A DNA stretch of 64,000 nucleotides, from positions 1,612,001-1,676,000 of the forward strand of contig JAYWIR010000035.1 of assembly GCA_036172245.1 (NCBI GenBank), given 5' to 3'. The translations under genes were made by a program, and so were the position numbers. Numbering within the stretch: position 1 is the first letter of the stretch; the number at the start of each line of letters is the position of its first letter. Source of the stretch: Raillietiella orientalis (Eukaryota). The notes under the pieces were generated by a model. The model was not told the DNA's origin. It was given only the letters and a program-made list of their open reading frames with translations, and ran no database searches. Positions 1-35,880 of the stretch are shown here, in pieces.

Positions 1-600
1 ACCTCCTGGCTACACTCGCGAAATCGAGTGGCATTCACGTAACGTAGGCAAATGAAATGGAAAACTGCAATCTTCGGGTGTAAGAAAGCGACATTCGATG
101 CGTGTCCAACTGTGGCTGGCAGCGTGTTTCGGGGGAGGGCGCACGCCCCGTGGCACCAGCAAGACGATTGCCCACACCTTGTTGAAACTTTTCGTTTCGA
201 TCGCTTTCGTAAGGGTTGCTGTTACTCGCAGGCAACAATAATCCTTACGACCTCGTTGCTGAGTTGTTTGGTTGCATTCTCATTTTGTTGGTTCTCGCCC
301 TCGGCTTCGAAGATCTCTTTCGTCCGGAACTGAGCGGCTCGAAGGAAAGCAGGAAAACAACAACAACTTGGCTCGTGGCGCACAGAAGCCAAGAGTGGCT
401 CCTGCGTGCAGTTCGGTCAGGGTAAGCCGGGAGACGTGGCTTAGCTTCCGATCGATGCAACGGAGAAAAGAGCACTGAGAGAACCTTACCGAGCTGCTTG
501 GTGTGAACAGCGAACTCGGCGAAGTAGTCAGCGACTGCATTGAGATCCCGAATCGAAAACGCACTTTATTGGACTCACGGATGGCACAGAAAAGGAAACT
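1..600. promoter_or_regulatory. CpG-rich island, probable promoter and 5' UTR exon of XAB2 (donor G|GTAAGC at 421/422)
   Basis: CpG-dense stretch that drops abruptly into AT-rich, CpG-poor sequence after ~600. It has a strong 5' splice site at 422 and lies upstream of the XAB2 coding exons. Confidence 0.5.
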
Positions 601-2058
601 TCTTGTAAAACGAGTAGTTTTGTAGGGTGGCTGGAGATGTGAAGTGCTAGTTCTGTCATAGAGATGACTAATATCATAAAAATGAACCGCATCATTTTGA
701 TGATACTTCACAGATAACTTTTACTTTTTTTTATAGTGGTTTGTGCCTTTAAGTGAGACCTCTTATAACCTTTTATCATTTGGCTGTAGCATAATGCGGT
801 TCAAATGAAACAGTGAACACAAGCGCATAATGCCGAAACAATCCAAAAAGCTTGAGGACTAATTCTTATAAAAGGAAATCAAAAGTCTTCTTAATTAACG
901 AGAAAAAGTTCATTTTGTTCATTCTAATCTATTTTATGGTTTTTTTAATTAAATTTTGAAAATTCCCTGATATTTCTTTATACTAATATAAATTATACAT
1001 TGATTTCTCTTTCCAGCATGAAGTTTTTTCTCAACTGATTATAAGTAAACTACAGCTAAACAGTGTATGCAATTATAATATGCTTTTAAATATTTTTCTG
1101 AAAATACTATGTTCTTATCTCTACTATTCTATACATGCATATAGTTTTTGTGGTAAGATATTTGCGTAGATCAGGATACGGAGGTACCTTTTGCCAAGAC
1201 TATAAAGCCTACATAATCATCTTGAAAAGTAAAGTTCAAAGATGTCAGAATAGTAGACCTTGAATATGTCATATATATATATGTTTCCATTGTAATTTAA
1301 TTACATGCAACAACTTTTTTTAAATTAATTCTTTGTTGGAATTGAATATTTATTGGAATTTGTGTAATGGCAAGCCTACAGTGAGCATTCCGCTCACAAA
1401 CAAAATGTGATGGGACGTATGAAGTGACAGGCATGGATGAGGAGAAAGTTTGTTTTGATATTGTATTTGTAAGTATCATAAAAATGATGCGAATACTACG
1501 GATATATTGTGTTTTATTCAGTTGTTAAGGAGATAACTATTGATTCTTATTGAAGAATACTTTGGCAGAACTTTTAATTTTATGTTCATTAATTCAGCAA
1601 TATTTTTAGAGTTCATTTGTAACATTCTTTGATTTTTAGAACAATGAGGAAAAGCATTTTTCTCAATATATTAAGTTTCTCAATGCGTTAAAGTTCTAAG
1701 AAGTAGCTGCATAACTACAACTACTGTCTTGCAACAACATTCAGTCAATGCTGTTGCATGACATAGCTGCAAGGACCTACAGCTGAAAACATCTCACGTA
1801 ACAATTCGTGTCTAATGAATCATTAACTAAAGCAGAGTCAAGATTTAATAGAATTTGTTTGAAAGTTAATGTTGACAGTTTCAGATGCCCAGATATAGCT
1901 AGGTCATGATACTTTAACATTGTTTTTCAATGCAGTGTTCGTGATTTTTGTAAATTTGTGAATTTATGTTTTGCGGGATTTTTTTGTACTTATTCTGAGT
2001 TATGAAATGTATTTACTTGGACAGAGAAAAGCATTTTACCATTTTACAGGAACAAGTA

Positions 2059-5000
2059 ATGGTAAGCCATTGAACATGAAACTGGTTGGGTCCTTGTGTG
2101 AATATAAAAAAAAAAAAAATAGGGGAAAAGTATATCACTACTCAAAGACAAAAGCGTGGTTAAAATGACTATAAAACAAGATATAACAAATATAGCAGCT
2201 TTAATGAATGAATTATAAAGAAAACTATTCATATCCTGATATAAACTGTTCATAGATTGATAAAGTTGTGGATCATGATGTTTCAGCTATTAAAATATAA
2301 GACTTAGTGATCTGTGTCAGTAAAGCAGTTTCACTGTTGATTAGCGATCTGTATAATTGTAACTGAATTATGTACCAATTTTCAGGATAAAGATGATATT
2401 CCATTTGAAGAAGATATCTTACGTAATCCTTATTCTGTCAAACATTGGCTTCGATATATCGAGTTCAAGAAAGATGCACCAGATTCAGTAATAAATATGA
2501 TTTATGAAAGGACACTCAAGGAATTGCCTGGAAGGTAACTTGTCATTGAGAAAGTGGGAATGTTTATGCTTATATGTGCAAATTTCAAAGTACATGGAGA
2601 TTTATATATAGAAATTCACTTGTTATTAACTATGTAAATTATTACAAAAAAAAAACAGGCAGTGCACATTTCCTGTTGCTGTAATGTGTTTGGAATGCAT
2701 GGGTACTAAACATATTAATGGTTTTTACTGCTTACTAATTTGTTGTAGAGGATATGCAAACATTAAAAAGAAAAATCTGATTGGGGGGGGGGGGATATTA
2801 GTGTGCTTGGAATTAGAAATTCAGTATTAAGAAATGAAAATCTTTTAAAAAAATTTTGTATACAGTACAATTTCAAGGCATGATAATAAATCTTTAATTC
2901 AAAATTAATTGGTAAAACGGAATCAAAAAGAGTCACTATTTTAACTGTCATAACTTTGCATTAAAAATGTGCTGAAAATATTTGCAACTTGTGCATACTG
3001 AGTCATTTTTGGACCTATTGCATGATGTAACTGATTTGTTTTATGTTTATCTGTACAGGAAACTAAAGTTTCTTTATTGTTTCTTTATGTCTGTGTTGCA
3101 CTTTTGCATAATTTCATTTTTTTCTTTTTTTTAATGTTCATACCATCTGCATTCAGTTTCAATCAGTGACTAAGGAAGTAAATAATCACCACATCCATGT
3201 TTAGTTTCTAGGCACGTATCATTCCATTTTAATGTTGAAAAATGCTAGAGTTTCATGTCTAATGATAAAAGTGCAATAGGAAGGAGAGGGAGAGAGAGAA
3301 AAATGATTTTATCAGCATAAGCAAGAAAAGATCACAACTTGAAACACTGTTTCAAAATTGTAATTATGGGGAAGAAAACTGTTTGTACATTGACTCCACT
3401 CTGATTCTTTACGTAAATGTAAGGGTTTTATACATATATATACATGAAGCATGGTGTGCATGTGTGAATTCTAGGTGCATTGATGTAGAATGAAAAATCA
3501 CTGTTTTACTGTATTATTGCCAGACTATTGAATATTTGTTATTAGGAATTTTTTGCGTTTCCATGTAGGTAACTTTATGGAAATAGAAGAACTTGCTTCC
3601 ATGTTCATTTTCAAGATTTTTAATGAAATTTTCATTCATCATTGAAAGATTGTGATGCAAGAACAAATAATAATTTAGCAGTGTTTCAACTTAGAAATGT
3701 CAGTTGCAGAAGGATGCTCATTTACTGTATTAAGAAAAATTAAAATGAAAAGAAAAGAAAAGAAGTAGCTGTGATGAATTAAAGTCAAATTCAGGAAAAT
3801 GCTGCCTGTTTATCACAACTCCATCTGTGAATTTCAGCAGCTCCTGGTAAAATGGGATATCCAGCATCCATCCAATTTATTCTAGAACTTTTGCTGCCAA
3901 GCCAGAATATATATTCCAGAATACAATGCAATATATGTGTTAGTTTTGTAAGTTTCTGGATCATAATGATTATAACTAGAACAAGCTAGTGTGTTGATAA
4001 TGAGTCAAGAAAAACTAAGCTCAAGAATGAGGAAGCTTTTTGGCTGTGCAAAAAATACTTTCATGTCACAAGGAGATAAAGGAATAGAAATATTACTTTT
4101 TCATAAAGGATCAATCTTAGTTTTAATATGGTGGTGGCAGATGGTTGCATAGTGTTATTGTGAAAGATGTAGGGTAATGGTTATGATAATTCCGTAATTA
4201 TAAAGTGAAACAGATGTGCAGTATAATATTGTCAATTAATTTATGTTGTCAGTTATAAAGGAATGATTATTTAAATTACAGTTGTCATTCTGCTGCAGTT
4301 GTAGTTATGGTTAGCAGGTTTTTACTTAGCTTTATTCAGCATCACATTTCATGAATACAGGAAATGAAATTAATTTCAATTTATCCTACATGGTACAAAT
4401 AATTTTTCTGTTTGAAGTACTCGTGCATACTTAAGGATCATAAATAAAATACCACCTCATAGTCTACATCTTTGAGTATAATTTAGAATACCTTCAATGA
4501 TTTCATTGAAAAATCATATTAAATATGGTATGGATTTTAGGTGAAATAAGTGTAAATTAGGTAGACCAACAATTTGAAAAATAGTCATTAAAAATTTTCA
4601 GCAGTTGACTATGTAAAGTTCACTTGATCATTGCAGCCATTTTTGTTTTTATGCAATCTTTGTTTTTTTTTTTTCCAATTTCAGTTATAAAATATGGAAT
4701 ATGTATCTGAAATTAAGAAGGGAACAGATAAAAGGTAATTATGTGACTCACCCTAACATAGAAGATGTCAACAATGCTCATGAGAGAGCACTGGTGTTCA
4801 TGCATAAGGTATTTAATTTTTTTGTTAGTATTCTTATTATTGCTTGTTGTTTTTGAAAGCTTGTTTTTCTTGGATGAAATAGAGTAAATTCTGTATCAGG
4901 TTATGATGTGGGTTCAGTTTTGCGTATTTAACAATTGTTAGTACATTTTTTGATGGTTGCAATCAATGACTATTTGAAAATTAAAAAACGGTGAGATGCA

Positions 5001-8000
5001 TACGTATGTTGTTTGAAAACACATTATTTGGAATAGTTCTTACCAAAAGAATTATGAATATAAAAAAACAATTATTTCAGCCAAGTATATGGTATTTTCA
5101 TGTGTAATTGGATGGGTTTTGCCTTTTCTTTTTTTTGGATTGTGGATGTACTTCTCAGAAAGCCCATTTCCACTAAATAACTTATCTGTATGATGAATAG
5201 TGAGTAATGTATTTTGATAGCACACCTATTAGAAATCAGTTCTCTGATATATTAGTTACAAATGTTCATGATTATTTACTGTTAGTTGATCACTCTAATG
5301 TGTTAACATTTATTTGATGTTTTGTCATATATCTTAATTTGGTTCAAGAACTCGATTTAAAATTTTCATTTTGTATCTTTAAAATCCCAATATGCAAAAT
5401 TACATGAGCTACTAAATTCAGAGATCTTGCTATTACATCAGTGGCCAATTTTAGCATCTACACTATGTTTTCTTATTTAAGGTAAGCGTATCCTACTATG
5501 GAAATGTGAGCTTATAATCATATTGTTGCATTATACAGTTTATTTCATCATAGTGTTTCTCCATCACAAGTTTTTAAAAGCATTTTAATGTTTGTAGTCT
5601 AAAAAGACCTGGTGCCTGCTTTTTCATTGATTAATTTTTTTTTATTCTCTCTGTATCCAGGTTTACCTCATTGTCTATTAATGATGGTTCCTTGTATAAT
5701 TAAGTCAGTCCAGGTCCTGTCTTGCAATCACTTTGTTTTTGCGATTTCTTATCTCAGTAGTGTAAATTGTTGATTAAAGTAATTGAGTACTGTAAATGAA
5801 TTGATCAGGCTATTGCTTTATTAAATATTGTAGTAAATTGGTTAGCATCTTCATTTTAGAACTTTTTCATAGGTGGATATTTATTTATCACGCAGATTGT
5901 ATGTCTTTTTTGTGCACATCCCTGAAATTTTTCTTTACTTTTCATTACTTTTCTACATTACATGCAATCACAACAGTTTCTATAATGTTTGGAGATTATT
6001 ATGGATTTTCTAGTATGTTAGATATTCCATGGAATGCAAATGGAGATTCAGAATAAAGTTCTTATTTTTGGACCATGCTGAAATTCCATCAATCCATAAA
6101 TGTGGATAGATGAAACAATTAAAGCTTGGATGCCCCTTTTTTTTTTTATAAGTTCACAAGGATTTGGATAAGTTAATCATGAAGCATTCAGTACATTGTA
6201 TTGAATGCATCAAATGCACTCTTACAACTTTAGCCTGTCAGAAACCATATGTTAAACAGATCCGGAATGAAAATGTCATTGTTAATAAGGTAGAGTGTTC
6301 CACACAAAGCGTCAGTTTTCTGCTTCTTAACAAAGGTTAGCATTTGGTCATATGATGGCTCTTTTGTGCTTGTATGTGTATAAGTATCAACTAAAAAGTG
6401 AAGTGTCATTCAAAGTACCCTTACAACTAGTAAGAGTACTGTGAACAACACTTTTTCTTTCTTCATGTCGTTATGTGCAATAAAATGAGAACAACTGTCT
6501 ATACTGAAGGAAGGTCTTTCTTTGTCTTTGAACACTGAGTCCCCATCATCCTTTCACATTTGCTGGAATAATTGTGGAAAATTCCTTTGTATGTGATATT
6601 CCTGCTGAAAGTGAAACCTTTGTTCTTATCGATCTCTTATGCCTCATTAGTTGAAACGAACTTCTCAATTACGTTTGTGAGGTATTCTTGCCATGGAGCT
6701 TGTTTTTTGCAACAGAGAAGTGGAATGTTTGTCGAAATTCATTAGACATTTCACCCATATCCTGACTTTTTGCCCCTGTACTTCTTATTGCATCTTAATA
6801 TACTGCTGTAAACTTATTGCCCCAATCACCCTGCAATTGTTGGCCAATACAAGTGAACTAGAATGTTGAACCAGTTCTAGCACATTAATTTGCTTGGAAT
6901 CATAATAGCATTAAACGGCATTTCAATAATGAGTAGTAATATATGATGCTAATAATTTGTAGTAAATATTCTCTGTAATTAAGAAAGGATTTCAACAATT
7001 ATTCTCTGATTGTTGAAATTGATTGATTGTTGAATTCATCCCATTGATGGTTTTTCGGAACTTCCCAGAACTTGAACTCTGAAGTGTCCCTAGAACTAAA
7101 CATATGTTAGCAGTTTGCACTATAAATGATTTGATCGCAGGTTTCAAATATAATCACAATTTTATGCCATTGAATTTTGAGGTAATAATGGCTTGGTTTT
7201 TCCTTTTTTTTTTTTTGATTTGTTGAGAATTTGAATTTTAATTCCGAATTATCTAAGAATTATAATATTTTAGACACAAACAAGGGCTTTGCTGCAACAG
7301 CTGCCTTTGGTCTCACGTGATCACTGCTTGCATACTCCAGTCTCTTGAAGCATGAATACTGTTAAACACCTGATATACCCTTATTTTTCTTTACTAGTGT
7401 TTGTTTTAGTTCTTTTGTGGAACCTCCTAGTTATTGTTTTTGTCTTTCAATAGCATTCATGATATTTTATTATTTAGTATACTTTGAGAAATTCTGCTCT
7501 TCCATATGATTTGATTTGCTTTTGTTTCCATCCATTGCTCTCGCAACATTTCATAAACAGATCGTTTCTCTCGTTACATCAGTAAAAAAAAAAAAAAAAA
7601 AAAAAAAAAACTTCTATGAGTAATAAAATTTAAATAGTATATACACCCAGAAATGGGTGGCCGGACAATTCATAGAGATGGTAAACAATTCTCGACTGAA
7701 TGCATATTACCATTATTATTTTTTGAAAGTGTTCTTAAAGTATTACATCTGCTTTGGAATCATTCATAAGGTCCATTGCGATGGATACCATCACTATTCA
7801 GATCCAAAACAAATTCCCTATCACACTGCTGTATAAGAAATGCAAAACAGCATTCAATGTATTCCATGCATTAGTTAGAATACTTCTTACTTAAGGAATA
7901 ATGAAATCCAAAAAAAACTGAAAATTATAAGGATGAAGAATGAAGAGGAGTTTGTTTTTTGTTTTTGTTTTTCATGTTCACATGTATGAGTAGACTTATG

Positions 8001-11000
8001 TATACTTAGGCATATTTTACTTTTGGACATTTTTATGGTGCACATGTTGCAGGCGTTTAGTTTTATTAATGTTAAACTGATAAGAGTTCACTCGAGACAT
8101 TCCAAAGTAACTCCCTTTTAAAAATTAAGAGTTTTTTGGGTATGGTTTGAAGATCATTAAGGGAATTTAACTTTCTTTTTGAAAGGATGAAGGATGTATC
8201 GGATTTTTATCCTTTGTAGATGCCAAGAATTTGGATGGATTATTGTGAATTCTTGATGCATCAGAAATGGGTCACAAGAACTAGGCAAACATTTGATCGT
8301 GCATTGCGGTCATTACCAATCACTCAGCATTCTCGAATATGGAACCTGTATCTGCAATTTGTGAAAGATGCTACTGTACCTGAAACTGCAATAAGGGTAT
8401 ATCGCCGGTATTTAAAGGTAGTTTTTTTTTTTTTTTTTATTTTGCGTATTCGTCTATAAATAAATGGTTCTTAGTTATGTCCTGAAAAAGCAGAAGATTA
8501 TGTAGAGTACCTGATCAGCATTCATCATTTGGATGAAGCAGCTATGAAATTAGCATCCATTGTCAATTCTGAAGAATTTGTTTCAACTCATGGGAAATCC
8601 AACCATCAGTTGTGGAATGAACTTTGTGAGTTGATTTCGAAGAATCCACAACATATAAAGTGAGTTGATAATGAAATTGTCATCCACATAAAAGCAAGAG
8701 GTCATTAAATGTTGATGCCATAATTCGAGGAGGACTGAGAAAGTACACCGATCAGTTGGGACATCTTTGGAACTCCTTGGCAGAATATTATATTCGTGCT
8801 GGACTGTTTGAGCGGGTCAGAAATCTATGAAATTTAAAATGTTCAGTAATTGGGATCATTTCAGGCCAGAGATATATATGAAGAAGCTGTGGAAACTGTT
8901 ACTACTGTAAGGGACTTTACTCAGGTCTTTGATGCATATGCTCAGTTTGAAGAGCTCAGTCTTAGTAGGTACATGGAAGATGTTGCTTTAAAAACAAAAC
9001 CTAGTCCTGAAGGTAAAACTAATTTATAAAGTCGTCTGGTAATGGACTTGTGTCTTATAGATGATCTAGAGATTGATCTTCGCTTGTGTCGTTTCGAGAA
9101 TCTAATTGAACGCCGTCCATTACTTCTGAATAGCGTATTGTTGCGCCAGAATCCACATAATGTCCCTGAATGGCACCGGCGTATAAAACTTTTAGAAGGA
9201 AAACCGGAAAAGGTGATGTGATAGCATACACTTGAAGGCATTTCTTTTTTAGATAATTCATACGTTCACAGAAGCAGTGCAAACAGTTGATCCACGACAA
9301 GCTACTGGCAAACTTCATACACTGTGGGTTGCCTTTTCTCGTTTTTATGAAGATAACAAGCAGATAGAGGATGCCAGAATTATTTTTGAAAAAGCTATAC
9401 AGGTTAGAAATTAAGCACTTAAGGTGCATGTGCATGCTAAAGTTTTTAGGTTCCTTATGCCAAAGTTGATGATTTAGCATCTGTATGGTGTGAATGGACT
9501 GAGATGGAGCTTCGCCAAGAGTCAGTTATAAAAATAAAGCAATCAAATTACTTTTTCAAACTAGCAATTGGGAGGAAGCTTTACGGTTGATGCAACGGGC
9601 TGTGACACCTCCTTCTCATAAAGTGGCATATCATGATGAGAAGGAGACAGTGCAAAAACGGGTCCACAAATCTCTCAAAGTGTGGTCCATGTATGCTGAT
9701 TTGGAAGAGAGCTTTGGAACCTTCAAAGTAAGAAGAGTGCAGTTTTGCATTTTCACAGCTGTCTTTTAGACCTGTAAGGCTGCTTATGATCGCATCATTG
9801 ATCTTCGTATTGCAACTCCACAGATCATCATCAATTATGGAATGTTTCTTGAAGAAAACAATTATTTTGAGGAAGCTTTCAAGGTGATTATTCCGCACAG
9901 TGAACATTGTCGATAGCTGTTTTAGGCATATGAAAAAGGTGTTTCGCTCTTCAAATGGCCTAATGTGTATGACATTTGGAATACTTATCTAACCAAATTT
10001 CTTGAAAGGTATGGAGGATCAAAACTGGAGAGAGCTAGAGATCTCTTTGAACAGTGTTTAGAGCACTGCCCTGCAGAGTATGCAAGAAGTATGTTCAGTG
10101 CAACTTCTGATCCCCACTAATGCACATATTAGATTTTTATCTATTATATGCCAAGTTAGAGGAAGAGCATGGCTTAGCACGACATGCTATGGCTGTCTAT
10201 GATCGTGCCACCAGTGCAGTTCCACCAAAAGAACAATTTGAGGTTAAATTTGTAGTATCCATCATCTTTTTTGATGTTACGCTTTCAGATGTTCAGCATC
10301 TATATCAGAAAGGCAGCACAGGTGTATGGTGTAACACGTACACGTGAGATATATGAGAAAGCAATTGAGCAGCTGCCTGATGATAGTGCTCATGAGATGT
10401 GCCTGCGTTTTGCTGATCTAGAACGCAAACTAGGCGAGATCGATCGAGCCCGAGCTATCTACTCACACTGTTCACAAATGTGTGATCCAAGAGTTAGTAC
10501 AGCCGAGTCTAAATGATTGAGATCACTGGTAGGTAATAGGTACGGCCACAATTTTGGCTCACTTGGAAAGAATTCGAGATTCGTCATGGTAATGAAGACA
10601 CTATGAGGGAGATGTTGCGCATCAAAAGGAGTGTTCAAGCTATGTACAACACTCAGGTAAGAATTACATGCTGTTCCTGAATTTTATTCCTTAATGTAGG
10701 TGAACATGATGTCAGCTCAAATGCTCTCATCTGCAGCACAAGCATCTGCTAAGGCTTCAGAAATGGCTGCTGCTAATCAGGATGGCATGAGAGTGTTGGA
10801 AACCAAAGCTGCTTTCTTGTCCAAAGAAGCTGAGAAATCTAGTAAGGTCATGCTCTTCGTTTCTGTTCTTTAATTGCTGGTTCGCAGTCTCACGAAGCAA
10901 CAACATTATGTTTGTAAGAGGTAGCAGTGATCAGAAAGCTGATGAATTGGCAGAACAAGCAAAAGTTCAAAACCCAGCAGAAATCAACATTGAGGAAGAG

Positions 11001-11148
11001 GAAGAAGAATCAGAGCAGCCACAGACAGGTACAAAATTTTGCGATCTTCAGAAAGATTTTATGATCTTATATGATGATAGATATTGAACTGGAAAAGATG
11101 AGCATTCCTTTGGAAGTATTCGGAGGTTTAAAGGCTAAAGATGAATGA
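2059..11148 (+). CDS. XAB2: Pre-mRNA splicing factor SYF1/XAB2 (HAT-repeat NTC subunit), ~838 aa. Exons 2059-2061 (ATG, tentative), 2386-2534, 4685-4808, 8220-8417, 8475-8659, 8701-8815, 8865-9012, 9061-9212, 9253-9402, 9450-9520, 9565-9727, 9770-9883, 9926-10088, 10133-10242, 10289-10492, 10540-10656, 10700-10841, 10888-11028, 11081-11148
   Basis: Manual GT-AG splicing gives a continuous 2517-nt frame. It carries hallmark XAB2 peptides: [111 protein letters not shown]. The start exon is uncertain (alternative ATG at 581). Confidence 0.95.
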
Positions 11149-11253
11149 TCGTTCAACCTATTGATCCTGGCTGTTACTTGACTGGTGTAGTGGGAGAGTG
11201 TACCTCATGACCACTACCAGTTTGATGATGTGTTGCATCGTGACTTAACTAGC

Positions 11254-11259
11254 AATAAA
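11254..11259 (+). terminator. AATAAA polyadenylation signal of XAB2
   Basis: Only AATAAA between the XAB2 stop (11148) and the next ATG (11274). Confidence 0.6.
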
Positions 11260-11273
11260 TTTCAGTTACGAAG

Positions 11274-13540
11274 ATGCTGGAGCGGCCTCAGTTATTTACT
11301 GATCTGGGACCTCTTCCTGTTGGTTGGGAAAGTCAGTTTGATTTGAAAACTGGCAGATAGTAATTATATGCTTTTGTACTGTCCTTACTAACATTTCTTC
11401 ATCTTAGCTATTTTATCAATCATTTTAACAAAACTACAACATGGGACGATCCCCGTTTCCGAGGAATTCTGCAGCCCATACCACCACCTCCATATCAAAA
11501 GGAACCTTGCTTTAGTCCTCCACAGGTGTTATGGACATCTCTATTGTTATGTCCTGCAATCTTCGAAAATGTCTTATGTCCGACATCTTCGAAATTCTTT
11601 CTTCACTTAAAATACTGAATTCATTATCATGCATGCAACGAATCCATCTCGTATTTTGATTTTATTGAACCTTCCAAGCAATTTGTTTGGTTTACTGGCA
11701 AGAATTTGAATTCCCTTACATCACTGTTTTCAAGCACAAATTCGTAATTGATCTGAGTTTTTAGGACCATTCTGGAATTGCATCACCTTCTGCAGCTAGT
11801 CCACAAGATGTCTATGGAACATTACAAAAACATGGTCCTCATTATTTACAGTATCCTTGGGGATCTACCTTTCTATCAGTTTTGCATCCTGGAACATATT
11901 ATATTCTGCAACCAGCTGGTCCATTTTTCTGCAGCAACTGTCAACAATTGTGCTATCCTGGGAGAATAAGCTCTGAAAGCCATATGCATGCAAGTGAACA
12001 GGATTCAGTTCAACTTTGCAGCAGTCCTGTTCCTGACGACCGATCACACTTGGAATCATCAGTGGCTAAACTTCAGTTGTTGTTTCCAGCTACATCATCT
12101 GAACACATACGCAAATTACTTATAAAGTGAGTCTGACGACATATGTCGTTTTCTGACAGGGAATTATGTTGCATGACAGTTCCCTTCTAGTCATATGTAT
12201 GTGCTTAGCCAGAGGCATGCAATTCTGTGACAAATAGTAATACGATGCAGTAGATAATTGTGATCTGTGAACTGGCAACAACTTCAGGTATCTCTATCGG
12301 GAGAATCTTGTCATCAGCGCACTTCAAGTGGAGAAACAACCCATTGCCATGCCCGGACCAAGTGCTACTTCGCCCCCTGCAACATATTTAAAATCCACAG
12401 AATCACTGAATGGAATCACTCCTACATTCCGAGATCCAAGTTCAGGAGCACCTTCTCCTTTTCCTTGTGTTTTTAACATCCATAAGCCACACTCCTCCCC
12501 CAAAATGAAATTGCGCTATTTGAAGACGATTTTTCCGAAAGCAGATGAGATGCTGCTGTTGGATGTGCTTGCAGAATGTGATAACAATGTGCAGTCTGCA
12601 AGTGAAGAGCTTCTGTCCAAAGGGTACTCACGGAAAGCAACACCAATACCATCGGCCAATAGCAGGCAGCTACAGTTGTCTACTGAACCAACTCATGAAA
12701 TGATATCACCTCCGGCTTTGAAGGTTTTATCCCCAGAAGAAAAAGTGCAAAGTAGTTTAGAATAACAAAAGTGCCCAATTACGTAATATCTTGCAGTTCA
12801 AGACCACTTCAGTTCCCGCTTCGAAGACATATCGCCAAGCGTGCTAAAGATGGCACTAGAAAGTGCATGCTATGATGAAGAACGTGCTATCCGCATTATT
12901 CAGGAAATGCAAGAACGGGAGCAGAAATTAGAAGAGAGGATTTGTGCACCCAACTACATTCCCGCCGATAGGTAAGCAAGATGAAAAGTGCCATCACCGA
13001 ATGTAAAACTTCAGAACAATGCCGTTGCCTTCCTCTCCACGTGGTTCTCCGCGTCATAAAGCTGTATATGCTCAAGCTGGTGATTCGGGAATGGAAGGAA
13101 GTGTAGAAGATCAGTCAGTCCCACGATCAACCCATTGTAAACTCAGCAAGAATATTTGTGGGTAAGTATGTGTGTTCATCCGGGGTGATTCTTACCACTT
13201 AAGGTTCAGTGTCTCTTTCGGAACTAATACCACTAAAGACCCAGGGTATTATTTGCAATCTCAGGCCAAAGGAGCAAACAAACAGTATTGGAAGGGCCCG
13301 CAGAAAACTCACCTTCTGTCAGTGAATCCATTTCGTTTTTTCATAATCTCTCGTTCTAGCAGTAACTATTTCTTGTGGAGCGGACCCGATGCCACCAATC
13401 ATGTTGGACCCAACCCGTCCCTAGCCAAAGGATCAACCTGCTTACACACCTACTCTTATCAGTCGCTGGCCAAAGGTCCCCTTCCGAATCATTGCCGAGG
13501 CCCCTCTAAACATCAAATAAAAGACTCGGTACCATGCTGA
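11274..13540 (+). CDS. Uncharacterised protein with N-terminal WW domain, PPxY motif, 2-3 CUE/UBA-like helical domains and C-terminal Gly-Pro repeats, ~548 aa. Exons 11274-11359, 11408-11525, 11765-12126, 12288-12751, 12797-12971, 13015-13161, 13204-13317, 13360-13540
   Basis: Spliced frame of 1647 nt is open. WW: [35 protein letters not shown]. CUE-like: VAKLQLLFPATSSEHIRKLL, LRYLKTIFPKADEMLLLDVLAECDNNVQSASEELL, FEDISPSVLKMALESACYDEERAIRII. AATAAA at 13913. Confidence 0.85.
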
Positions 13541-16500
13541 AAACCACGAACCCTCAGACCTTACTGTAAGGTCAGTAACAACACTGCCTATTGTTTGTGC
13601 AATCGTTTTGCCAGAAAGGTCTTTGCGGCGTCTATTGAATAGTGAAACAAATAGTTTGATGTTTTCGTAAAGTAGGCGTTTTTGTTTCTAGGGGAGGGGG
13701 GGAAGAACCCCAAACTAGAACCATCGTGATCATGAGCTGTGTATGGAAATTTATATAAAATTTGTGTTTCCAATACCAAGGAAATTCTCGAAGAATCCTC
13801 CACTCCGGACCCAAAGAGGAATCGCATCATCTTTGAAAAACCAGACTGAAAGTTCAGTCATGCAGTTCAGCCTTGTTTTTATGTGGTTGTATGATTTAAA
13901 TACTCGATCGCCAATAAAGCAAAATTCATGGGTCGACTATGCGCATTCTTGAAATAATTCCATGTTTTTTTTTTAAACAAAAAAAAAAAGGAAAGATAAA
14001 AGTTTTCACTTAATTCCTGATATCTTTACAAAACCTAGAAGCAAAGCGCTATCCTGGAATTGGGTTATTTTTCTCTCGTTTTCAAGGGAAGGGTGATTAC
14101 ATAACATAATATTTACTAATTATTATGTTTTTCCGATGAGAAGTTTTTGTTCATGTGCAGCAGCAATGTGAGCGAATTCGGTTGCAGCTATCGATTTCAG
14201 CCCCTCATATTATACTGATCTTCATACAATAATTGTCTGCATTAACTGTCAAAGGTAAACAGTGAAAAAAAAACAGGATTGCCAAAGCTTCTGAAACAAA
14301 TTCGAAACATATGAACAAAACTCTGAAATGTAACGTCGAGCAAGCATACAAGTGAAAAGTTTCTTCAGTTTGCACGAGAAGGCATACTGGCAACAGCCCT
14401 GACGTGAAACTTCATCTGCACACTTTCTTTACAGCTAGGTTAGATTTGTTTTCTTTCTTACTAGTACCATAGATGGAATGTTTTCATGTAAAAGGAAAAA
14501 GAAAAAATATTCCATAGCTTCGGTTTTCCATTTATTTTAATATTTGACGTACGAAAATCTACTGGAACCACATTTCACCTTTATCGCTTTACTGCTGATC
14601 TGGCCTGAGATGTGGATGGACTCGTTCGGTTCTTCCATTCCAGGAACAAATTTCCAAGATCTACACTTTTCCATCTTTCGGAAATTTAAGATTTCGTCGA
14701 GGCTCCACTGAATGCATGCGTCCTGGATCACTTCGAAATTTTAATTTCTTGTTCGCCGACGTTCACGTTTTCCGACAACCGTCTTTTCACAACGGCCACC
14801 TACCGCCACCGTCCCGCTCAGTGGGATTCTTCCGATGGACCTCTCCGAAATCAAAACTCCAATTTCCAGAGATTATGAATCCAAATGGGTGCTTCTTCGC
14901 CTTGCTTTTCGAACGCTTGGAGCGTGAAGAGCTCCGCATTTTATGCGGAACGCAACTACACACACTGTACAGTGTGTATATCTCCAAGGAGATAGTGGTT
15001 TGAATCGGCTCTAGGGCAAGCTGTGCCACTCGACCCAAGATGCTTGGCCTCGAGGCGCGCGCGCGAGACGGACTCGGAAGCGAAACCCATGCATTCGGCT
15101 GCCGGACGTCTTCGAAGCGTGGAATCCAAAGGCAAGAAGAATGTTACGAACGACTTGAAAATAAGGAATGATGTCGATGGCTGCGTGTTGTGCCCTTCAA
15201 ACAGTCTGTTTAAAACTTTCGTGTCGAATGCGCCTTTAAAGTCGTAGCTGATGCACCTGGAAAGCCTTTGAACTATTTGTTTCTGCTGCTGGCGATCCCA
15301 ATCGCGATCGCTGCCGAACACACTTAAAAACAGAGCTGGTACGCTAACGAAACTGATGATGCACATGATTTTTATCCCTTACTTAATGGCCACAGTGGGT
15401 TTTATTTCCAACCGCCAAGCAGCCTGCTGCACTTTTCCCTCGTGGACCCGCTGCAACCCATTCCTCTGGAATGCCGAGCGCGCGAACTGCTTGCAGCTCA
15501 CCGCTGCTAGGCACCGATTTTCTTGCAAGTGGTCGGTGAAAAGTCCGACGTCATCAAAAGTCATCCAGGTCCGCCTTCACCTTGACATCCGTCGTTGCGT
15601 TTCACAAAGCTTTTCGAAAAACGCAACTCTACTGCCCCTTGCATTCGTTCGAAGGGGGAAACGGCCGGCGGAAAACAAACGCACGCGGCTCCTAGGGGCG
15701 AGGTATTTCCTCATGTGTGAAATGCATACAAAAAAATTTTTCTTCTCTTTCTCTTTTGCAAGTTTAAGCCACAAGGCCGCTGATGGTTTGGCTCGGTGCT
15801 CCTACACGCCCTACGCGCCCAACATGATGGGAATGCTCTAACGTAACCCATGATGCACTGTTTACGAAACATTTGCCTACACAACCTATTAAAATATGAA
15901 AAAAATGGCGGCATTCGGCCCCGGTGTGTTCCAATTTTCACCAACACTTGATGGTGACGTTATTAAGCAGACAACACTGCACATCTGAAGCATTACCAAA
16001 AGCCAGCCACTTCTGGGTGCACCATACCTCAGCCAGCCACTTTGATCTTAGCCAAAAGGCTGAGAAGCGATACTTCACCACCAGAAGCACTACGTATGTA
16101 TCGAACAAGTCTTACGTACACAAAAAATAAAGTGGTAATACAATATCGAGACCTCCTTATGTTTCGCATACGAAACAGCTTTTACGGCGAAAACTGCGAT
16201 CAACTATAACATTATCTAAACTGCACGGAATGGTATTTACATCAGGTGCTGTTACTTATAATGAGAAAACACCCGACGCCTTCAAACTTTTGGGGGACCT
16301 AGGGGACTCTCTGAGAATTTTCTCGTCTAATATTTACAAAATAACAGAGACGATGTGCTTTACTTCCAACATGCAACAAGTAACATCACCACCACCACTC
16401 TGGGAATAAAAACTCAAATTCGGTCTTACTACGAAATGAGAAAAAAATATCCAAAAGAGTTTCCTTTCTGATATTCAGAACACATAACAGCATGAATGCA

Positions 16501-27694: not shown

Positions 27695-30492
27695 ATGGAA
27701 GCTTCCAGCGCCGGAAAACCACAAAAAATGCCGAAAGTGGCCAAAGTAAGTCTGCAGCTCCTATTTTTGGTCATTTTTTTCGTTGTAGCAGATGATGTAT
27801 AATTTAAAAAGAATGTACTTTAAATTGAAAAAGTTGATTAGCACATGATTAAGAGGCAAAACTCTTAACTCAGTTTGTGAATAGATGTGGGTCTGTTTCA
27901 TAAAGCTATACAGAACTATAAAAAGTAGTACTGGTGTTAACCAAAAGTCTTATATCCATGTTGAGTGCATGCTAATGATGCCATTCTTTCAGGTCAAAAA
28001 TAAAGCACCAGCAGAAATCCAAATAACTGCAGAGCAGTTATTGAGGGAGGCCAAAGAAAGGGATTTGGAAATTCTACCACCTGTAAGTACCCGGTAGATA
28101 AAACGACTCATGAAGTTAGGAATTAGCAATAAAGAAATGTATTGCATTATATGTGTTCTTTATGTGCAATCATATGAGTTCAGTTGTGAAATGTAATTCT
28201 AGCCTCCAAAACAAAAAATCTCAGATCCTGAGGAACTTGATGATTACCGATTAAGAAAAAGAAAACAATTTGAAGATAATATACGAAAAAATCGTACAAG
28301 TATAAGTAACTGGATCAAATATGCCCAGTGGGAAGAAAGTCAAAGGGAGATTCAAAGGTTAATATTTATCATATGGAACAACACCATTTTATTGCAGTTA
28401 TCCTCGTGTAGAACCCGTTCAGTTTATGAAAGAGCTTTAGACGTCGATCATCGAAATATCACATTATGGCTGAAATACACAGAAATGGAAATGAAGAACA
28501 AGCAAATCAATCATGCCAGGAACTTATGGGATCGGGCAGTGACCATCTTGCCAAGAGCAAATCAGTTCTGGTACAAATACACCTATATGGAAGAAATGCT
28601 TGGCAACATAGCTGGTATCTTATGGATTGAGTAATTTCTGTGTACTAATTACATGAAGAATAGGGGCAAGACAGGTGTATGAGCGGTGGATGGAATGGGA
28701 ACCTCATGAACAAGCTTGGCAAACTTACATTAATTTTGAATTGAGGTATAAGGAGCTAGATCGTGCTCGAGCTATTTATCGACGGTTTGTTATGGTTCAC
28801 CCAGATGCCAAAAACTGGATTAAATGGGCTAGGTAGAATATTGAGTAAAAAGCTTCATGTTGAATCGATTTAGGTTTGAAGAACGACATTCTTACATCCA
28901 GAGTGCTCGCCGCATATTGGAACAAGCCATTGAATTTTTCGGGGAAGAGCAGTTGCAAGAGAAACTATTTATTGAGTTTGCTAAATTTGAGGAACGTCAG
29001 CGTGAGGTAAAAAAACTGGAATGAGTGCAACATGCTGTAGAAAAACTGATCAGCATGACCGAGTACGGGTAATCTACCGCTATGCCTTGGATCGATTGCC
29101 TCGAGAAAGATGTCAGGATATTTATCGTTGTTACAGTATTCATGAGAAGAAGTATGGAGATCGTGGCCTTATTGAGAGTGTTATTGTCAGCAAACGACGC
29201 TTTCAGTATGAAGAGGTAAACAGCAGGCATAATTTACCAGACAGTTAATTTTTTGAAGTTAATCTTAGGAGTTGAAAGCTAATCCTCATAACTATGATGC
29301 GTGGTTTGATTTCTTGAGGCTCTTGGAGGCTGAAGGAGATGTTGGTGTTGTCCGAGAGACTTATGAACGAGCTATTGCTAATGTCCCACTCACAGCTGTA
29401 CGTGTAGCATATTCATTTAGCCTTTCTTATATGCAACTCAGGAAAAACGCCATTGGCGTCGGTATATTTATCTGTGGATCAAATATGCATTGTATGAAGA
29501 GCTAGATGTAGGAGATAAAAACCAAACTCGAGAAGTGTATTTAGCATGCCTAAAGCTTATTCCACACAAAAGGTTCACTTTTGCTAAAGTGTGGCTGCTA
29601 GCAGCTCAGCAGGAAGTGCGTCAAAAAAATCTGTTATCAGCACGTAAATTGCTGGTGAGCATAAACTGCATAAATCCTTCCAAAAGAAAAAAAAAAACCC
29701 CTAGGGAACTGCAATTGGGATGTGCCCTAAAGACAAACTATTTCGTGGCTATATTGACCTGGAGATTCAGCTTAGGGAATTTGATCGTGTTCGTCGCCTC
29801 TATGAGAAATTCCTAGAATTCTGCCCAGAAAATTGCACTACATGGATGAGATTTGCAGAACTTGAATCTCTGTTAGGTGATGTGGATCGAGCTAGGGCCA
29901 TATATGAGCTGGCAGTGGGACAGCCACGTCTGGACATGCCTGAAGTTGTTTGGAAAGCATATTTAGATCTGGAAATGGAACAGGAGCAACCAGAGCGTGT
30001 TAGGGATTTGTATGAACGTTTGTTGCAACGCACACAGCATGTGAAAGTGTGGATGAGCTATGCCAAATTTGAGGTTTCTCAAGGGTGTGTGGATCGAGCC
30101 CGGAAAGTGTTTGAGCGTGCTAACCACGTTCTCCGTGATTCTGACAAGAAAGAAGAACGTGTCATTATTCTTGAGAGTCTGAAAGAGTTCGAGGATGAAC
30201 ATGGTGATCAAGAATCTCGCCAGCGAATATGTGCCTTGCTTCCACAACGTATTAAGAAGCGACGACGTATACAAACAAATGATGGGGTAAGAACACTATA
30301 AGACTTTCATGCTGGTAATTTGATGCTTCCTTTTAATCTACTTAGACCGATGCTGGATGGGAAGAATACTTTGATTATATCTTCCCAGAAGATGAAGCTT
30401 CCAGACCTAATCTGAAGCTTTTAGCAATGGCCAAAATGTGGAAAAAACAGCAAGAAATCGGGAATGTTGAACAAAAAGAAAGTGATTCCTGA
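27695..30492 (+). CDS. CRNKL1: Crooked neck-like pre-mRNA splicing factor (CRNKL1/SYF3/CLF1), ~677 aa. Exons 27695-27745, 27993-28082, 28203-28357, 28412-28614, 28664-28832, 28874-29006, 29054-29215, 29269-29397, 29442-29654, 29705-30286, 30346-30492
   Basis: Spliced frame of 2034 nt is open. It contains [113 protein letters not shown] and [20 protein letters not shown] at 30942. Confidence 0.97.
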
Positions 30493-33400: not shown

Positions 33401-35880
33401 AATAATGATCTTAGTTTTAGCGCCTTCTTCGTAGCTCTACTTGCCTTCAAAATATTTCCTCTGAAGGTTTCACGCACCACTTTGGACCTTATTTTTCGGA
33501 AGAAAAAGAAAGAAAAAAAAAATTGAAGTGAACTGGCATTTGCATTAGGAATTAACTCATCCGATATCTAAATCAGACAGTTGTCCTTAGCCTTTTTTTT
33601 TTTTTTTTCAAAAGCTTTTGAACTAGCGATCATTACGCCTCTGTTCGGCCCTCCAGTAGGATACTGACTGCCCTTTGGCAAAACTGTCCTTGGCCAAGTT
33701 ACTCTTAGCCAGGGGGTGTAAATGCGTGGAAGGATGATGAGTACGTCTTTGCAAAAAAAAAAAACTGTGCTCCGCTTGTCAGATCTCTTTGCGGGTGGTT
33801 TCTGTTGTGAGCCACAGGGTCATTAATGTCCTACTAAATAAAATACTTCTGAGTGTGGCATTCCGGAGTATGGCATTCCAATCAGATGTGGAAGCTGACT
33901 CATCCTGCTAGGTTATGGACTCCCATCTACAATTTCTTTTAAACTCTCCTCGCACATCAGAGGCAAAAAGATCCAAAATTTAGACTGAAAATCCACTTAT
34001 GCCAAAAGTGGGGATTGACCTCGGTGGTTTCTAGCAGGAGGTCCAAACCAAGTCCGGTACCGAATGCATGTAACTATGTGTCAGGATGTATGTACATATA
34101 TGTTCGGACAAAATAAGAATGAAGAGAGGTTTGCATTTAGAGGCCGTGTGAATGGAGAGTTATTGAATACGAGAAACACGAGAGAAGGTAAAGGTGAGAC
34201 GCAAATTACATTTCATATGCAATTTAATGTAGAATAGATTGGATCCAAGTAGATGAAAATGCATTTCATACAGTGTGTGACGGACAAATGCGATTTCTTT
34301 ACCATTTCCACTAAGCATTTGTTAAATACATTAAAATACGCAATTAGTTTACGAAGAAAGCATTTGCATGTATTTATTTTCAATGAAATACATTAGTTAA
34401 TGGAATATGTTTATATGGCGCTCTGTACAAATACATCAGCCGTGACAATAAAATGTGTTGACGGAGAAAGTAAAGGAGGCTCATTTCGAATCCACAGGAA
34501 TTTATGAACGTCCCGAAGGCGACACCGATGCACACAATTACCGGCGCGTCCCTCCAGCACGGAGGCGACTCCTTTCCTCCCTGAAGTTTCTCCGATCCCG
34601 ACTCGCACGGTCTTGAAATTGAACCCGCGTATTCTTTTTCCGAATGTTCTCCGCGCTCTTATCGGCTTCTTTGTGACCTCGCCGACGGAACGTGTTTGCC
34701 CCTGCCGTGCTCCACGCTGGCACCGACTGTCGCAGAGTCTGATCCCCCCGCGCGTCGAGTACGTTGGGCGGGGGACGCCCTCACGAGGACTCGCCGACCA
34801 GCGGAGGTGGCCGGTTGCCGGCGCAAGGCGGTTCCCAAGGTGCCGCGCTTGTCAACGGACGCCTGCTTCCGACCGGGGGGCCCTTTCGAGAATCCGGAGC
34901 TCTCGGGCCGGAATACCTTTTCTGCGGCCATCTTTTTGCTCACCGACCGCTTCCTCTTCCCTAAGAACCGGGAACGGGGATTGACTGTTTGCTCCTCGCA
35001 TCCGTCCCCATTGGCCGCATTCGGTCTGGATCGAATCGTCGGGAAAAGACAAGGGTTCCCTGCGACTGCGAGCACTGCCATCTCGTGGACCCGCTTGATT
35101 TCAGGATGCCCCTCCCCCAACCCGTCTGGTGCGTTTGCGCTCGGAACTCCTCACTTTGTCTTTCACGCGCGTGACATTCCTCCCCAAGACGACTTCGTGG
35201 GATCCCGGAACGGATCGAAGGCTCTCGAAAGCAGATGGAGATCTCTCCGCAACCGCTCCTTCCGCTCAGACTCTAGGGGGGAACCAGGGAACCAGTCCTG
35301 CTCCTTTCGGCCGTCGCACTCCCTGACGAAAATCGCGGCTGGAAATTCCTGCGCGGGGCGTGGCCTCTACACTTCTCCTCCTCTCCTCTTCTTGCCACGG
35401 ATGGTTTGAACACCAGTGGACTGCGGAGAGCGCGCGCCGATCCCTGCTGCGGCTTGCGCGAGCTGCGCCTCCCGCTTGTCGTTCGCCATCACCTCGCGCC
35501 TAGAGTTTCCGGGGTCTCACGGCCCGCGCTGGCCTCCGCGGAGGCTTCGCTCCCATCAGGCGAAATGGGCAGCACGCGTGACAGCGCCCATCGAGGACCA
35601 CGAGGTCGCTTCTCGATGCACACGCGTGTCTCCTCGTGAGAGATGCCGCGGCTCCATCTGTTTGGCAGCTCGGGCCGATCGGAGGGGAGGGGCAGGGAAG
35701 GATTTTTCGCACTAGCGAGTGCCAGCAGACTCGCAACGAGTGAAACCCCAGAAGTTTTTTCTTTCCTCTCTCTCTCCAGACTGAGCGGCAACGGTTGCAG
35801 CAGCAGCGTCCGCCACAGTGGGACCAGCCGCCGCCCAAAGAGACGGCTCTCTGCCGTGTTGTGCGGCCGTCTCCGCGCGT

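Follow-up and report, generated by a model that had tools for sequence, protein, structure and literature searches.

A poly(A) signal set against a candidate splice acceptor between the XAB2 and WW+CUE genes of Raillietiella orientalis

Two same-strand genes and the junction between them

We analysed a window of 64,000 nucleotides (nt) of Raillietiella orientalis (GenBank assembly GCA_036172245.1, contig JAYWIR010000035.1, positions 1,612,001 to 1,676,000), numbered here from its first letter, and focus on the junction between two neighbouring genes on its forward strand. The upstream gene, XAB2/SYF1, encodes a spliceosome scaffold, and the downstream gene encodes a ubiquitin-binding protein with WW and CUE domains (WW+CUE). 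An earlier note on this DNA had proposed that the two genes are co-transcribed, with the poly(A) signal of the first placed directly against a splice acceptor ahead of the second. On re-reading, all the positions given in that note were correct: the XAB2 stop codon TGA (11146-48), the WW+CUE start codon (ATG 11274-76), the 125-nt spacer, and, within the spacer, GTTTGA (11220-25), CTTAAC (11244-49), AATAAA and TTTCAG. The AG of the last motif, ending at 11265, lies just 5-6 nt past the AATAAA hexamer (Table 1).

This junction is real, and it is unusual for a neighbourhood in which the other intergenic gaps are ~3 and ~6 kb. Cleavage usually takes place 10-30 nt past a poly(A) hexamer, and from the hexamer at 11254 it would fall at or beyond the WW+CUE ATG. 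Therefore, the XAB2 and WW+CUE transcripts should either overlap or come from one RNA.

The XAB2 exons were rebuilt from ungapped protein matches and enumerated GT..AG joins, and the 5' end was then corrected. Translation begins at ATG 1433, which sits in an exon spanning 1382-1468, and continues through 18 further coding exons to the stop. The product has the HAT-repeat architecture expected of XAB2, with Syf1 N-terminal, middle and C-terminal blocks over ~850 amino acids (aa). Single exons match PF23233 (8.7e-32), PF23220 (8.7e-17) and PF23231 (down to 4e-36) in Pfam, as well as the human SYF1 chain of a spliceosome structure in PDB (5mqf_M, E 2.3e-39), and the 849-aa model aligns over its full length with insect SYF1 at ~72% identity. 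We find identities of ~72% to Lepidoptera, a stick insect and a locust, 69% to Daphnia and spiders, 66-68% to molluscs and 63-64% to vertebrates, all computed on an earlier model that differs in the first 8-12 residues only. That model started at ATG 581 (exon 581-604); it was dropped because ATG 1433 reads MDEEKVCFDIVF, which fits the N-termini of relatives. As ATG 1433 lies in exon 1382-1468, the strong donor at 422 is also accounted for; on the local matrix described below it scores 8.8 bits and beats 21 of 25 real donors. No in-frame ATG was found upstream of 421. At the other end of the gene, the last exon carries a VP..VFG.L motif that also ends three relatives (P0121, P0122 and P0125). 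A similarity search with the C-terminal exon stretch 10700-10846 gave no matches.

Two side observations concern the structure of these genes. The XAB2 leader in exon 2 (1382-1432) holds two minimal upstream open reading frames (uORFs), ATG TGA and ATG AAG TGA, just ahead of ATG 1433. Furthermore, introns at 8418-11080 and 12752-13203 are extremely short; 19 of the 25 introns modelled in the two genes measure 40-57 nt, as do 15 of the 19 XAB2 introns (one of which is in the 5' untranslated region). The donors of these short introns are weak and varied (GTTAGA, GTCAGT, GTGATG), and introns of 0.9-3.4 kb are found towards the 5' end of the same gene.

The second gene is identified by homology as an orthologue in an arthropod WW+CUE family of the Drosophila CG10508 type. 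Its protein has an N-terminal WW domain, two CUE-like blocks (VISALQVEK and SPKMKLRYLK...DNNVQ) and C-terminal KGPN repeats. There are 248 relatives at E<=0.001, one of which is named CG10508; among the 120 listed, the named proteins are all from Diptera or Lepidoptera, and some carry PF00397 together with PF02845. The single-exon Pfam scores are below the cut-offs, both for WW (21.7 vs 26.9 bits) and for CUE (13.9 vs 21.1 bits), and the best representative among 1.84 billion is no better than E 5e-24. An alignment of nine sequences has 46 invariant columns. In a cluster atlas the matching clusters are CUE and WW+CUE clusters, assigned at family level only and most frequent in Arthropoda. The family appears to be arthropod-specific. 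Taken with the XAB2 identities, these protein comparisons by themselves would place the source among arthropods, probably insects, and they give it no close annotated relative.

The start of the WW+CUE frame is also consistent with its relatives. An intron within the WW domain occupies the identical position in a genomic relative (L011), and in orthologues the WW domain begins a few residues after the first methionine. Since orthologues start just ahead of the WW domain, ATG 11274 is the conserved start. Elsewhere in the family, the second CUE block is tandemly repeated in P0001 (Cydia splendana, 857 aa; ~10 near-identical copies) and in P0308 (874 aa), which could be a true amplification of exons or an artefact of assembly or annotation.

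Table 1. Features of the XAB2 and WW+CUE genes and of the spacer between them (positions in the window).
Feature	Position	Strand	Remarks
XAB2 promoter region and non-coding first exon	1..421	+	CpG-rich; ends at donor AGG/GTAAGC, GT 422-423
XAB2/SYF1 coding region	1433..11148	+	19 coding exons, 849 aa; boundaries by homology
Last XAB2 intron	11029..11080	+	52 nt, phase 1; donor CAG/GTACAA, weak acceptor GATGATAG
Last XAB2 exon	11081..11148	+	22 residues, conserved C-terminal motif; TGA 11146-48
Spacer between XAB2 and WW+CUE coding regions	11149..11273	+	125 nt
13-codon uORF in spacer	ATGs 11207, 11225, 11228; stop 11246-48	+
Poly(A) signal AATAAA	11254..11259	+	Sole AATAAA/ATTAAA in 11000-11500
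Acceptor-like site TTTCAG	11260..11265	+	8 nt ahead of ATG 11274-76
WW+CUE coding region	11274..13540	+	7 exons, 562 aa; stop 13538-40
WW+CUE exons	11274-11359, 11408-11525, 11765-12126, 12288-12751, 12797-12971, 13015-13161, 13204-13540	+
Probable WW+CUE poly(A) signal AATAAA	13913..13918	+	Read from the sequence only

Strength of the acceptor and its candidate donors

Donor and acceptor matrices were built from the 25 homology-inferred introns of XAB2 and WW+CUE, with real sites scored leave-one-out. We find that AG 11265 scores 6.09 bits and beats 17 of the 25 real acceptors, for which the leave-one-out median is 4.95. An equal or higher score is reached by 4.3% of the 1986 other AG sites in 1-34 kb and by 1.5% of 270 exonic AG sites (both with an earlier 24-intron matrix). 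Acceptors this strong have a density of 2.65 per kb per strand in 1-34 kb, which corresponds to ~3% per 12-nt stretch, and 9.2% of 20,000 Markov-simulated spacers contain one in their last 30 nt. A poly(A) hexamer and such an acceptor within 12 nt occurred in 0.06% of 20,000 simulated spacers, a test that was chosen post hoc. The two strands of 1-34 kb together hold 66 AATAAA hexamers, and the one at 11254 is alone in being followed by an acceptor this strong within 12 nt. These score and simulation tests, which use a small matrix trained on the same locus and decoys that include unannotated real sites (e.g., those of CRNKL1), provide moderate evidence that AG 11265 is a genuine acceptor. The branch-like CTTAAC at 11244 is present as claimed in the earlier note, but it carries little weight, since a YTNAY motif lies 8-32 nt from the acceptor in only 11 of the 25 real introns.

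The acceptor has no convincing donor nearby. The best GT in 11081-11250 reaches at most 2.6 bits, and real donors mostly score 3-10 bits. Therefore, the partner of AG 11265 would have to lie further upstream or act in trans. A 46-nt intron (11220-11265) with its donor at GTTTGA, as suggested in the earlier note, was rejected on its donor score, though its length is typical of the locus: the donor has -0.2 bits, lower than any of the 25 real ones, and a random GT site is as good in 47% of cases.

The closest good donor is that of the last XAB2 intron (exon end 11028, GT 11029-30). It scores 4.7 bits and is in phase 1, like 4 of the 18 XAB2 coding donors in all, and the acceptor of the same intron, at 11080, is weak (-0.04 bits leave-one-out). 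Joining 11028 to 11266 keeps the reading frame open (...QPQT-VTK-MLERPQ...), with no internal stop, so that a usable donor, a strong acceptor and an open frame across the join are all present for a read-through chimera. The in-frame reading of this join, described in the earlier note, is confirmed in the sequence, as a 1-in-3 event; the fusion would have 1392 aa and not ~1367. This join drops the 22-residue C-terminal XAB2 exon. Because the VP..VFG.L motif of that exon is conserved, the join would be a minor form only. A join from 421 to 11266, which would need 19 XAB2 exons to be skipped, is unlikely. Splicing to 11266 would also take the 13-codon uORF out of the WW+CUE leader.

We tentatively favour a reading, which we put a little short of an even call, in which AG 11265 is a real cis acceptor and the WW+CUE messenger RNA (mRNA) is made from RNA that crosses the XAB2 3' end, with the XAB2 poly(A) signal overlapping the 3' splice-site region. 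On this reading, the first WW+CUE coding exon would not be a first exon. It would be joined to an exon further upstream, and transcription would pass the XAB2 3' end. With AATAAA lying within the last 12 nt before the acceptor, one short stretch would be contested between the cleavage machinery and the factors that recognise the 3' splice site. Crossing RNA that is cut would become XAB2 mRNA ending at ~11270-11290, and crossing RNA that is spliced instead would carry the WW+CUE frame. The motifs with their scores, the open frame and the missing promoter signature are seen in the sequence itself; we infer that the acceptor is used, which donor it pairs with, and that cleavage and splicing compete. 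Two partners can be considered. The first is the XAB2 donor at 11029, which would yield a chimera of XAB2 (minus 22 aa) with WW-CUE, probably as a minor read-through product. The second would be a leader exon of the WW gene that is CpG-poor, unannotated and embedded in XAB2.

Several points weigh against this reading. The chance rate for an acceptor this strong is ~3% per 12 nt and ~9% in the 30 nt before the ATG, the acceptor matrix rests on just 25 introns of the same locus, and branch motifs are degenerate here (11 of 25). A form of XAB2 that skips its conserved C-terminal exon cannot be the main one. The letters of TTTCAG double as an initiator-like motif, which fits a transcription start at A 11264 with a 10-nt leader. 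Fused XAB2-WW proteins were not found among the 120 WW+CUE relatives listed (up to 2000 aa), among the 120 SYF1 relatives listed (all <=888 aa), or among the 150 listed of 165 representatives (longest 874 aa).

The gene order in one relative, L011, also weighs against it. WW+CUE relatives are encoded at 24 loci found in a metagenome scan; 10 of these look like cDNA contigs, and XAB2 is present in none of the 24; a scan of prokaryote genome contigs for the XAB2/WW+CUE adjacency likewise found none. Only one genomic relative, L011, extends from the WW first exon into upstream DNA. Its upstream 7.8 kb contain a carboxylesterase gene and, as the upstream neighbour, a divergent TPR gene, not XAB2, and the bases before its ATG are A-rich and not acceptor-like. 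The earlier note had proposed looking for the adjacency in related genomes; in L011, the sole relative allowing the comparison, it is absent. For Drosophila, a passage of PMC3989599 places fand (CG6197) at 2R 50B4-B6, and a passage of PMC7144943 gives CG10508 as convergent to CG12975/Hcs.

Promoter signatures and other origins of the WW+CUE transcript

XAB2 and WDTC1 have CpG-rich 5' ends, and WW+CUE does not. Gene bodies are strongly CpG-depleted, with observed/expected ratios (o/e) of 0.13-0.6. The XAB2 5' region (1..421) has a GC content of 0.52, 30-31 CpG per 400 bp and an o/e of 1.15; the WDTC1 5' end has 20-33 CpG per 400 bp (o/e 0.8-1.2), and the CRNKL1 5' end has an o/e of ~0.9. The WW+CUE start (11001-11400) has 6 CpG and an o/e of 0.41, like the XAB2 body. 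The earlier note was therefore right that no CpG island of the kind found before XAB2 and WDTC1 precedes WW+CUE. We found no TATA, DPE, DRE, motif 1 or E-box in 10.9-11.27 kb. An initiator-like TCAGTT (11262-67), which fits the arthropod initiator consensus TCAGTY, overlaps the acceptor. TCAGTY occurs 1.06 times per kb, and there is no TATA at -40 to -20 and no DPE at +28 relative to this motif.

The initiator-like motif bears on an alternative that we consider rather unlikely, namely that these are two independent, tightly packed genes, with a CpG-poor WW+CUE promoter inside the XAB2 3' untranslated region or last exons. In one variant, transcription would start at A 11264 with a 10-nt leader. 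The likeness to an acceptor would then be coincidental, and XAB2 mRNA would stop shortly inside the first exon of its neighbour, giving two transcripts that overlap by tens of bases. Overlapping untranslated regions of tandem genes are common in compact arthropod loci. The relatives are consistent with such an arrangement: copepod orthologue cDNA contigs are monocistronic, 1.4-2.3 kb long and with short leaders, the L011 gene has its own upstream region beside a divergent neighbour, and fused relatives were not found in the listed sets. However, no other core motif accompanies the initiator-like sequence, the CpG ratio at the presumed start is unlike that of the other three window genes, and a 10-nt leader would be unusually short. 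Were the start placed further upstream, the leader would contain the AATAAA and the three-ATG uORF. The neighbourhood, with its other gaps of ~3 and ~6 kb, is not compact either.

A partner in trans would point to a spliced-leader operon without intercistronic DNA, in which one primary RNA started at the XAB2 promoter would undergo either cleavage after AATAAA or trans-splicing to a leader at AG 11265. In operons of this kind, as described in passages of Satou et al. (2006, PMC1488885), genes lie on the same strand, the acceptor is set against the upstream 3' end, and the two kinds of processing are mutually exclusive; the layout at the XAB2/WW+CUE junction fits this description. As in operons, the same-strand neighbours are very close, with 125 nt between the XAB2 stop and the WW+CUE ATG. 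The strong acceptor is an orphan that has no donor nearby, and a promoter signature is absent.

Copepod orthologues add to this comparison. Four calanoid copepod WW+CUE contigs from metatranscriptomes (L001, L002, L004 and L008), all among the 10 that look like cDNA, begin with the 46-nt calanoid leader CopepodSL, whose sequence is given in Table 1 of PMC4664967, joined 1-47 nt before the ATG. Another contig, L003, shows the gene of L002 and L004 in unspliced form, with acceptors ending in TTTTAAG and TTTCTTTCAG. Judged from these contigs, the 5' end of the copepod WW+CUE mRNA is made by splicing just ahead of the ATG, with the leader supplied in trans. As a side observation, this one copepod gene (L002, L003, L004) has two alternative trans-splice acceptors 21 nt apart plus an unspliced precursor. 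CopepodSL itself has no match in our window, which is uninformative either way on leader use. The whole window contains no Rfam families and no tandem repeats.

Other evidence counts against a spliced-leader operon, which we regard as improbable. XAB2 is nearest to insects (~72%, vs 69% for Daphnia and spiders), and the WW+CUE protein is no closer to copepods (~29% identity) than to flies (~30%). The XAB2 exon with the ATG is built as an ordinary cis exon, preceded by a leader exon in a CpG island. The AG lies 5-6 nt past the hexamer, short of the 10-30 nt at which cleavage usually takes place. In addition, passages of PMC7986045 hold spliced-leader trans-splicing to be absent from insects and report no operons for copepods and amphipods. 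A true XAB2-WW+CUE operon, in an arthropod outside the known trans-splicing groups, with a transcript from a CpG-island promoter and an overlapping poly(A) signal and trans-acceptor, would be highly improbable.

The short spacer, the shared strand and the lack of a promoter signature are also consistent with an unspliced dicistronic mRNA that runs past AATAAA 11254 to ~13913, with its second frame translated by internal entry or reinitiation. We find this barely credible. The two frames are separated by a canonical AATAAA, the spacer contains three upstream ATGs, and the relatives give no support. Reinitiation would not be expected after an 849-codon frame.

The co-transcription proposed in the earlier note is supported in part. 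At the level of sequence, it is favoured by a strong acceptor without a near donor, the weak acceptor at 11080, the in-frame join and the missing promoter signature, but the 46-nt intron does not stand, no fused relatives were found in the listed sets, and XAB2 is not upstream of the gene in L011.

Known systems and the wider window

The arrangement that we tentatively favour, a cis acceptor overlapping the XAB2 poly(A) signal, shares features with several known systems. According to passages of PMC1488885, C. elegans SL1-type operons keep their AATAAA, and most Ciona intestinalis operons are without it. As in these operons, the 3'-end signal lies against the downstream acceptor and each RNA would yield one mRNA. 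Unlike in these operons, no spliced leader is known for the window's organism, whose XAB2 is nearest to insects, the AG follows the hexamer by 5-6 nt, and use of the acceptor is only predicted.

In read-through chimeras, or conjoined genes, the donor of the upstream penultimate exon joins a downstream acceptor and skips the last exon with its poly(A) signal. The join from XAB2 to WW+CUE is in frame. However, the usual acceptor in conjoined genes is that of the downstream exon 2, whereas the acceptor in our window precedes the exon with the start codon, and a fused protein is not found in the listed relatives of the window genes. Drosophila dicistronic genes also place a second frame a short distance behind the first on one strand, but they lack a poly(A) signal between the frames, and our window has AATAAA at 11254-59. 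Calanoid WW+CUE mRNAs come from an orthologue, and their splicing uses acceptors of the form (T)nCAG or AAG that lie 1-47 nt ahead of the start codon; in contrast to our cis reading, the copepod partner is the 46-nt CopepodSL (PMC4664967), and protein identity is ~29%.

Use of the acceptor would mean that 3'-end formation of a core spliceosome scaffold gene and output of the ubiquitin-binding WW+CUE protein are decided on the same 12 nt. One RNA would give one product or the other, which would make the junction a simple built-in switch and a clean case of competition between cleavage and splicing. If the partner were instead a spliced leader, operons would be extended to a new arthropod lineage; passages of PMC7986045 report none from arthropods. 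If transcription starts at an ordinary promoter, the junction would be a mere tight overlap of genes.

Elsewhere in the window, WW+CUE and WDTC1 converge with their 3' ends on a CpG-rich stretch at 14400-16000 (GC ~0.5, o/e 1.0-1.26). Its longest open reading frame (15272-15838) has no Pfam match, and the stretch may be an unannotated promoter or a repeat. The CRNKL1 (crooked neck/Clf1) gene (27728-30300, forward strand) starts at ATG 27728 (MPKVAK...) and is within 17 kb of XAB2. Upstream of its ATG there are acceptor-like sites 19 nt (4.9 bits) and 184 nt (10.4 bits) away. CRNKL1 and XAB2/SYF1, listed together in a table of PMC3989599, are both HAT-repeat subunits of the same spliceosome complex. 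Base composition shifts sharply at 34000: 1-34 kb has 28-44% GC and is CpG-depleted, and 34-64 kb has 50-68% GC with a CpG o/e of ~1. This second part holds a RhoGEF and PH gene (SOS1/NGEF-like; Pfam E 4.4e-12 and 4.5e-7) on the reverse strand at ~43.8-46.2 kb.

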